Assembly (NCBI RefSeq): GCF_000026545.1 | Contig: NC_011601.1 | DNA length: 64,000 nucleotides | Direction: 5' to 3' (one strand) | From: Escherichia coli O127:H6 str. E2348/69 | GTDB taxonomy: Bacteria > Pseudomonadota > Gammaproteobacteria > Enterobacterales > Enterobacteriaceae | In this document: positions 3,348 to 3,730 of the stretch, in pieces | How the letters are laid out: each line of letters starts with the position of its first letter | How positions within the stretch are numbered: position 1 is the first letter of the stretch | Program-made: the position numbers and the translations under genes | The notes under the pieces: model-generated | Database searches by the model: none | What the model saw: only the letters and a program-made list of their open reading frames with translations | What the model was told of the DNA's origin: nothing

Positions 3348-3364
3348 ATTACCTTACAGGTAAT
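3348..3364. promoter_or_regulatory. Operator-like palindrome ATTACC-N5-GGTAAT
   Basis: Perfect inverted repeat ATTACCttacaGGTAAT, same motif as the immunity-region operators; upstream of small plus-strand gene 3441..3701. Confidence 0.45.
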
Positions 3365-3440
3365 TTACATTTCATGCTGGATAGTCCTGATATCTTCTGC
3401 TACTGTATGTTTTATACAGTGATTGCATGGAGAAGAAGAG

Positions 3441-3701
3441 ATGCAACGGCAGTATCACCATCCGCTGGAAGAAGGATTTGAGGAAAGAATACACACGCCG
3501 GTAGGCGTTAGATCCCTGGTGGAGGAATCGCACCTGATGAAGTTGCTGCGGGAACTCGATAAAGATGGCTTCAATGTTGATGGGCCACTTGCTGAACTGG
3601 TTGCTCTTGTGAACTACGTCACAAGTTCTCAAATGACCATGCAGGATCTGCAAACTCATCTCGATTACTGTGCGGAACAGTTACGTAAGCAAACCACTTA
3701 A
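3441..3701 (+). CDS. Hypothetical small protein (86 aa), opposite-strand moron inside the virion gene block
   Basis: ATG at 3441 preceded by GGAGAAG; opposite strand to flanking virion genes; operator palindrome upstream. Confidence 0.4.
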   Translation: MQRQYHHPLEEGFEERIHTPVGVRSLVEESHLMKLLRELDKDGFNVDGPLAELVALVNYVTSSQMTMQDLQTHLDYCAEQLRKQTT

Positions 3702-3702
3702 T

Positions 3703-3730
3703 GAAAAATAAAAGGCCGCTATTGCGGCCT
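3703..3730 (-). terminator. Rho-independent terminator (minus-strand orientation)
   Basis: AGGCCGC-tatt-GCGGCCT hairpin; the T-run is on the minus strand (plus-strand AAAAATAAAA at 3703-3712). Confidence 0.5.

Follow-up and report, generated by a model that had tools for sequence, protein, structure and literature searches.

The open reading frame at 3441-3701 (plus strand, stop codon included) of a 64,000-nucleotide stretch of the Escherichia coli O127:H6 E2348/69 genome, hereafter the window, is very probably the antirepressor gene ant of the epsilon15/SPC32H temperate podophages (genus Uetakevirus), forming part of a switch of the SPC32H type in which an altered LexA box should weaken the hold of LexA on the gene. 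Both the gene and the mechanism are already known, and are textbook-level for phages of the epsilon15/SPC32H type. The altered box, where the two half-sites lie 9 bp apart (N9) and not 8 bp (N8), is a cis-regulatory lesion of this particular allele, and the Ant protein itself stays within its family.

The ant gene and the late genes around it

The gene starts with ATG, codes for 86 amino acids and has a Shine-Dalgarno GGAG (3429-3432, +), read from the sequence, 8 nt upstream of the start codon; the small gene opposite to the structural genes described in the original prediction is thus present as claimed. Its product is identical in 85 of 86 positions to the 'Anti-repressor protein' of Salmonella phage SPC32H (PDB 5D50_E, E = 2.3e-54), known from a co-crystal with the repressor Rep, and this bears out the proposal of an antirepressor module within the late region. 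The homology is full-length, as in the small antirepressors of the SPC32H type, the single difference being D29E. Moreover, Ant is a member of PHROG 450 (E = 2.5e-46), and its orthologues in SPC32H, SPC32N, 65FD and 66FD, found in the equivalent position, are annotated as ant or anti-repressor. The checks proposed earlier, for antirepressor activity and for interaction with the repressor, amount to work that exists for the 99%-identical SPC32H ortholog. The core of Ant (residues 26-76) also partly matches PHROG 1760, 'anti-repressor' (E = 1.2e-7), near the C terminus of that family (175-225 of its 232 positions), and the small Ant may correspond to a domain of larger antirepressors.

The ORF gave no usable match in Pfam or NCBIfam, neither of which has a model for Ant, and the label of the protein in RefSeq annotations of E. 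coli genomes is 'hypothetical'. With this label and no model, induction circuits of this kind are invisible to routine annotation. In IMG/VR 298 relatives were found; 80 Ant loci were inspected and 54 distinct upstream regions aligned. The GGAG is near-invariant among these 54 unique regions, with GGGG in one.

The location of ant, on the strand opposite to its neighbours and flanked by the last late structural genes and by the tailspike gene, matches that in SPC32H and epsilon15. Over a 750-bp segment the DNA of the locus shares 93-94% identity with SPC32H, SPN1S and PAT1 and 95% with epsilon15, the latter across 72% of the query, and the gene order is common to all of them. On one side lies the tailspike gene (555-3242, -) and on the other the gene for a virion structural protein of 824 aa (3902-6376, -; PHROG 684). 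The flanking genes are therefore those of the original prediction, except that a further ORF of 46 aa with two putative transmembrane segments (3751-3891, -) sits between the hairpin downstream of ant and the 824-aa virion gene, being the last late structural gene before the terminator. This region matches PHROG 7892 (E = 5.5e-29, residues 10-55 of a longer ORF), and its equivalent in SPC32H is SPC32H_019, 'putative integral membrane protein'. The hydrophobic 46-aa ORF is conserved, but carries no annotation in the E2348/69 RefSeq records.

The hairpin that had been noticed 3' of the ORF (AGGCCGC-TATT-GCGGCCT, 3713-3730) was also found, with 7 pairs, 6 of them G-C, and with folding z-scores of -4.1 on the plus and -3.7 on the minus strand. 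Assigned as a minus-strand terminator common to the late operon and ant, it is followed by a T-run on the minus strand (3712-3703, terminator scan), whereas on the ant strand the tail reads UAGUGACAUG, with no U-tract of the sort seen in intrinsic terminators. Since the T-run exists on the minus strand only, by the usual rule the hairpin primarily terminates the converging late operon; the epsilon15 record likewise has a rho-independent terminator at this hairpin, annotated on the late-gene strand. With the late operon ending at this terminator (3730-3713), the tailspike gene needs a promoter of its own, and a sigma-70 promoter, TTCATA-17-TAGAAT (3293-3321, -), was predicted by a consensus scan with 9 of 12 matches.

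Abutting the terminator there is a perfect 12-bp palindrome, GTGACATGTCAC (3732-3743). Further copies of it occur at 24018-24029 and 21812-21823, one of the copies having 1 mismatch, against 0.19 expected by chance, and each of the three sites adjoins the terminator hairpin that closes an operon. Epsilon15 has the palindrome in the same three places (2142, 19517 and 39612), where it may serve as a site for a protein or for RNA processing tied to termination.

Rep, its operators and the ant promoter

The gene lies in an epsilon15-like prophage that begins ahead of position 1, reaches about 36.4 kb and has its integrase beside guaA. The same element carries the cognate repressor gene, rep (28826-29422, +), whose 198-aa product, the target of Ant, aligns over its full length with the 'Repressor' of 5D50 (5D50_A, E = 4.6e-127, 6 substitutions in 198 residues) and also matches 5D4Z (residues 92-198).

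The perfect palindrome reported upstream of the ORF is present at 3348-3364, between the divergent ant and tailspike genes, with 6-bp arms and a 5-bp spacer (ATTACCTTACAGGTAAT, that is, ATTACC-TTACA-GGTAAT). It has the motif of the Rep operator, ATTACC-N5-GGTAAT, a 17-bp palindrome found in 7 perfect copies in the window, all in the prophage, and in 17 copies when up to 2 mismatches are allowed. Shuffles of the window contain 1.9 such motifs on average, and the number found is far above chance, since none of 100 shuffles reached 17. The other perfect operators given by the motif scan are at 20594, 23942, 26432, 29480, 29542 and 29618, and near-copies at 26370, 28739 and 28756. Operator clusters (28709-28772 and 29480-29634), with one-mismatch copies on both sides, bracket rep, while solitary operators elsewhere precede structural operons such as those of terS and portal. 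The operators occupy equal places in SPC32H, epsilon15 and the E2348/69 prophage, and the epsilon15 record (AY150271.2) annotates the orthologous sites as protein_bind 'repressor'. Control of the small gene by a repressor, as first proposed, is hence plausible; the description was incomplete all the same, having overlooked a LexA box at 3401-3421.

This LexA (SOS) box (+ strand, TA-CTGT-ATGTTTTAT-ACAG-TG) is a second palindrome, between the operator and the ATG of ant. Alignment of the 54 unique upstream regions revealed a series of conserved blocks, namely the operator arms (TATTACC and GGTAAT), CTGGATAG, TG, TACTGT, ATACAGT, GGAG and ATG, separated by variable spacers, that within the operator included. 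From this conservation an extended -10 element, TG-n-TACTGT (3398-3406, +), can be predicted, in which the TG is invariant and the adjoining spacer variable, and whose hexamer (3401-3406) doubles as the left LexA half-site. A -35 element, TGGATA (3378-3383, +), is likewise predicted 17 bp from the -10 within the block CTGGATAG. A simple consensus promoter scan did not call the ant promoter, and we infer the operator, -35, extended -10 and LexA-box assignments from the sequence itself. As regards the box, CTGT-N8-ACAG stands in 77 of the 80 IMG/VR loci with at least 8 different spacer sequences, which argues for selection on both the half-sites and their spacing; it is also found at the orthologous sites of SPC32H, epsilon15, CP059840.2 and two further E. 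coli prophages, MARGA_3 and ET846. Two of the 80 loci (L066 and L079) have ATGT-N8-ACAG about 40 nt upstream of ant. In these two, Ant is about 87% identical, and the changed base, which leaves one LexA half-site mismatched, also turns the -10 into TATATG.

The operator at 3348-3364 lies some 49-65 bp 5' of the predicted ant start and some 62-78 bp 5' of the predicted tailspike start, overlapping neither predicted core promoter. Because it is outside both, repression of ant by Rep at this site is a conjecture. Among the other operators compared, the only clear geometry is that of the PL-like promoter at 29515-29543, where the operator overlaps the -10. Nevertheless, the distance from the operator to the -35 of ant, 13 bp in the window, is fixed at 12-13 bp in all 54 unique upstream regions, whereas the sequence on the tailspike side is mosaic, and this favours a link of the operator with ant.

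The induction mechanism would be that of SPC32H, carried over by analogy from the 99%-identical ortholog for which it is established. Rep of this phage is reportedly not cleavable by RecA (Kim & Ryu, J Virol, 2013), and in the same work one base change in the LexA site over the ant promoter is said to give SPC32N, with constitutive Ant and lytic growth. The published SPC32H abstract is also said to name LexA as the sole regulator of ant. When the two genomes are compared, SPC32H and SPC32N differ in exactly 2 nt, one of which is the change ACAG to AAAG in the box upstream of ant. In a lysogen, Rep would thus sit on the ATTACC-N5-GGTAAT operators ahead of the prophage transcription units, where it would remain uncleaved in the SOS response, and host LexA would occupy the SOS box that overlaps the promoter of ant. 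After DNA damage LexA would be removed and Ant made; the Ant tetramer would then bind Rep and turn its tetramers into dimers that leave the DNA, with induction of the prophage as the outcome. Host LexA is the documented control of the antirepressor in this family of Salmonella phages, in which the SOS response and LexA self-cleavage lead to synthesis of the antirepressor and to inactivation of the repressor by protein-protein contact (PMC7380047). Furthermore, the binding of SPC32H Rep to DNA as a tetramer, the binding of Ant and the release of Rep from the operator have been summarised (PMC9638917).

Several other features of the prophage and its surroundings were recorded. A gene for a PerC-family transcriptional regulator (33163-33462, +) lies in the early-left operon of the prophage of this EPEC strain. 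Visible decay of the prophage, which otherwise looks intact, is limited to two features of the RefSeq annotation: three CDS fragments in the early-right region (24479-25965, -), marked as partial ('incomplete; partial in the middle of a contig'), and a tRNA-Gly pseudogene at approximately 21057-21169. At 27690-27800 a replication-initiator-like gene contains tandem 24-bp and 36-bp repeats, encoding PKNGKLND twice and IPKNGNVTKIGS twice, with 1 to 3 copies among relatives; they are similar to the iterons of an origin lying within a gene of the lambda O type. Outside the prophage, an anti-phage Hailong system (49065-50847, -; halA and a nucleotidyltransferase gene), annotated in one RefSeq record, is part of an island beside der that carries an integrase. 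About 70 bp upstream of halA stands CACTGTCTGTATATACAAAA (50914-50933), a weak match to an SOS box, which scores 14.3 bits with an approximate matrix and may be due to chance.

The extra T in the LexA box

In the window the half-sites of the box are perfect, but they stand 9 bp apart (CTGT-ATGTTTTAT-ACAG, 3403-3419), not 8, owing to an extra T within the run at 3410-3413, which reads TTTT against TTT in relatives. Over the ant promoter the N8 arrangement characteristic of Ant loci of the SPC32H type is therefore missing, and CTGT-N8-ACAG is absent from the whole 64-kb window. At least 120 sites of the family in IMG/VR match the box pattern with either N8 or N9, and among the 80 listed the N9 form was found solely in the E2348/69 contig, which is identical to the window. 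A general scan of IMG/VR with the N9 pattern gave 13 further matches, all in unrelated coding DNA of GC-rich phages. With an approximate LexA matrix, built from known SOS boxes of E. coli, the box scores 25.4 bits in SPC32H, 19.0 bits in SPC32N and -0.2 bits in the window. To judge from its sequence, the extra T should strongly weaken LexA binding and, given this prediction, Rep at the upstream operator, and not LexA, would be what keeps ant silent in this stock, if anything does. By analogy with SPC32N, a dead LexA box should make the prophage unstable, yet the prophage is present in the genome; since it is maintained, either LexA still binds, or the T is a sequencing difference, or another factor silences ant. 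Should the allele be real, some other factor must keep ant down, for which Rep bound at the neighbouring operator is the obvious candidate.

The comparison of the window with another E2348/69 assembly (NZ_CP059840.2) gives three differences over 64 kb, at 1828, 3413 and 27741, all in the prophage, and none in the 27.6 kb of flanking host DNA. The one at 1828 is a SNP in the tailspike gene (A472V) at which the window has the ancestral base. At 3413, the T of the LexA box, it is the window that has the derived state and CP059840.2 the N8 box. The third concerns the iteron-like 24-bp repeat unit (PKNGKLND), present in 2 versus 3 copies in the DnaT-like replication gene (27267-28073, -), and its number varies among relatives. 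Since the window is derived at the LexA box and ancestral at the tailspike SNP, the differences do not fit a simple picture of a single decaying lineage. The TTTT run is present in IMG genome 643348548, LT827011 and LT903847, and the window is 100% identical to E2348/69 assemblies. The extra T may be a sequencing difference; if it is not, E2348/69 stocks differ in the key cis element of the prophage switch. E2348/69 being the prototype EPEC strain, a box broken in some stocks only could mean that spontaneous phage release differs between them, and the response to DNA-damaging antibiotics may differ too. In addition, the N8/N9 allele pair would constitute a natural test of how strict the spacing of LexA half-sites is and of whether ant is also under Rep.

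Several other readings of the locus have to be weighed against this background. In P22, the immI module, whose mnt gene is on the opposite strand, lies between gene 16 for an ejection protein and gene 9 for the tailspike, and the analogous position of the present ORF, as well as its size, similar to that of Mnt, would suit a ribbon-helix-helix repressor like Mnt or Arc, or else part of a P22-type Ant, with its own operator. The match to 5D50 refutes this identity, which was rejected and has practically no chance of being correct: the ORF matches SPC32H Ant end to end, Pfam, NCBIfam and PHROG give no match to Arc, Mnt or P22-type Ant, no second small regulator gene exists within 3243-3750, and the palindrome, which recurs around rep, is the operator of Rep, an HTH repressor. 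As for the N9 box, the change is of one base in a short homopolymer (TTT versus TTTT), for which CP059840.2 agrees with the relatives, and it might be ascribed to sequencing or assembly, the real prophage having an N8 box and an SOS-inducible ant. We consider this explanation unlikely. TTTT occurs in three records, although these are not independent, since the construct of LT903847 derives from the LT827011 stock; an undercall of the homopolymer in CP059840.2 is equally possible; and the clean SNP, with the window ancestral, and the 24-bp repeat unit nearby look like real divergence.

A reading that deserves to be taken seriously, even though it falls short of being probable, is that the operator at 3348-3364 serves the tailspike promoter and that ant is under LexA alone, in which case ant with the N9 box would be effectively unregulated and the prophage leaky or crippled. 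The need of the tailspike gene for its own promoter, with one predicted at 3321-3293, speaks for it, as do the solitary operators ahead of other structural operons (terS, portal), the IHF site that the epsilon15 record places between the operator and the tailspike gene, the SPC32H abstract, said to name LexA alone for ant, and the fact that all 3 differences between the two E2348/69 assemblies fall in the prophage. It is opposed by the constant spacing between the operator and the -35 of ant (54/54), with a mosaic tailspike side, and by the operator's own position, roughly -62 to -78 relative to the predicted tailspike start, which is outside the core promoter predicted there. Nor does a crippled prophage agree with lysis (the cassette being partly covered), replication and structural genes annotated as intact, three small early-region fragments excepted. 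Somewhat more doubtful, but still conceivable, is a real +1 spacing mutation in the reference E2348/69 lineage by which LexA has lost ant, so that the prophage survives only through repression of ant by Rep. If this were true, there would be a second, Rep-dependent lock on ant, so far undescribed for the switch of the SPC32H type, and E2348/69, a well-used laboratory strain, would carry an epsilon15-like prophage that is SOS-blind or abnormally leaky; it could also account for all three stock differences over 64 kb lying in the prophage.

Relation to known systems

The immI module of P22 (mnt-arc-ant) is likewise an antirepressor module placed between ejection-protein and tailspike genes and partly on the opposite strand. 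An Rfam search of the ant region gave no match, and so none to sar RNA. The proteins of the two systems are unrelated, and in the E2348/69 prophage Arc and Mnt are absent, with control by LexA and Rep instead. Coliphage 186 with Tum and the Gifsy prophages with their antirepressors follow a similar logic, a LexA-controlled small protein inactivating a repressor that cannot be cleaved (PMC7380047). No sequence relationship of these to Ant was detected, and they are analogous in logic only.

Epsilon15 is much closer: its gp19 (AY150271.2) is the orthologous ORF, and the 'repressor' site, the IHF site and the terminator follow in equal order. In contrast, the epsilon15 record calls gp19 a hypothetical protein and has no annotation for the LexA box. 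The closest system is the Ant/Rep switch of SPC32H (Kim & Ryu, J Virol, 2013; Kim et al., PNAS, 2016; PDB 5D50 and 5D4Z). The two share Ant (85/86), Rep (6/198 substitutions), a gene on the opposite strand between the homologues of SPC32H_018/019 and tsp, the motif and placement of the Rep operator, the promoter blocks, the Shine-Dalgarno sequence and the terminator hairpin. They differ in the host, Salmonella for SPC32H and E. coli EPEC O127:H6 here, in the tailspike and conversion genes, in D29E of Ant and in the spacer of the LexA box, of 8 bp in SPC32H and 9 bp here. Finally, SPC32N is the natural LexA-box mutant of SPC32H and, like the present allele, has a cis lesion in the SOS box that precedes ant. 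In SPC32N this is a point mutation in a half-site (ACAG to AAAG), whereas in E2348/69 it is a +1 change in spacing, carried by an integrated and evidently maintained prophage.
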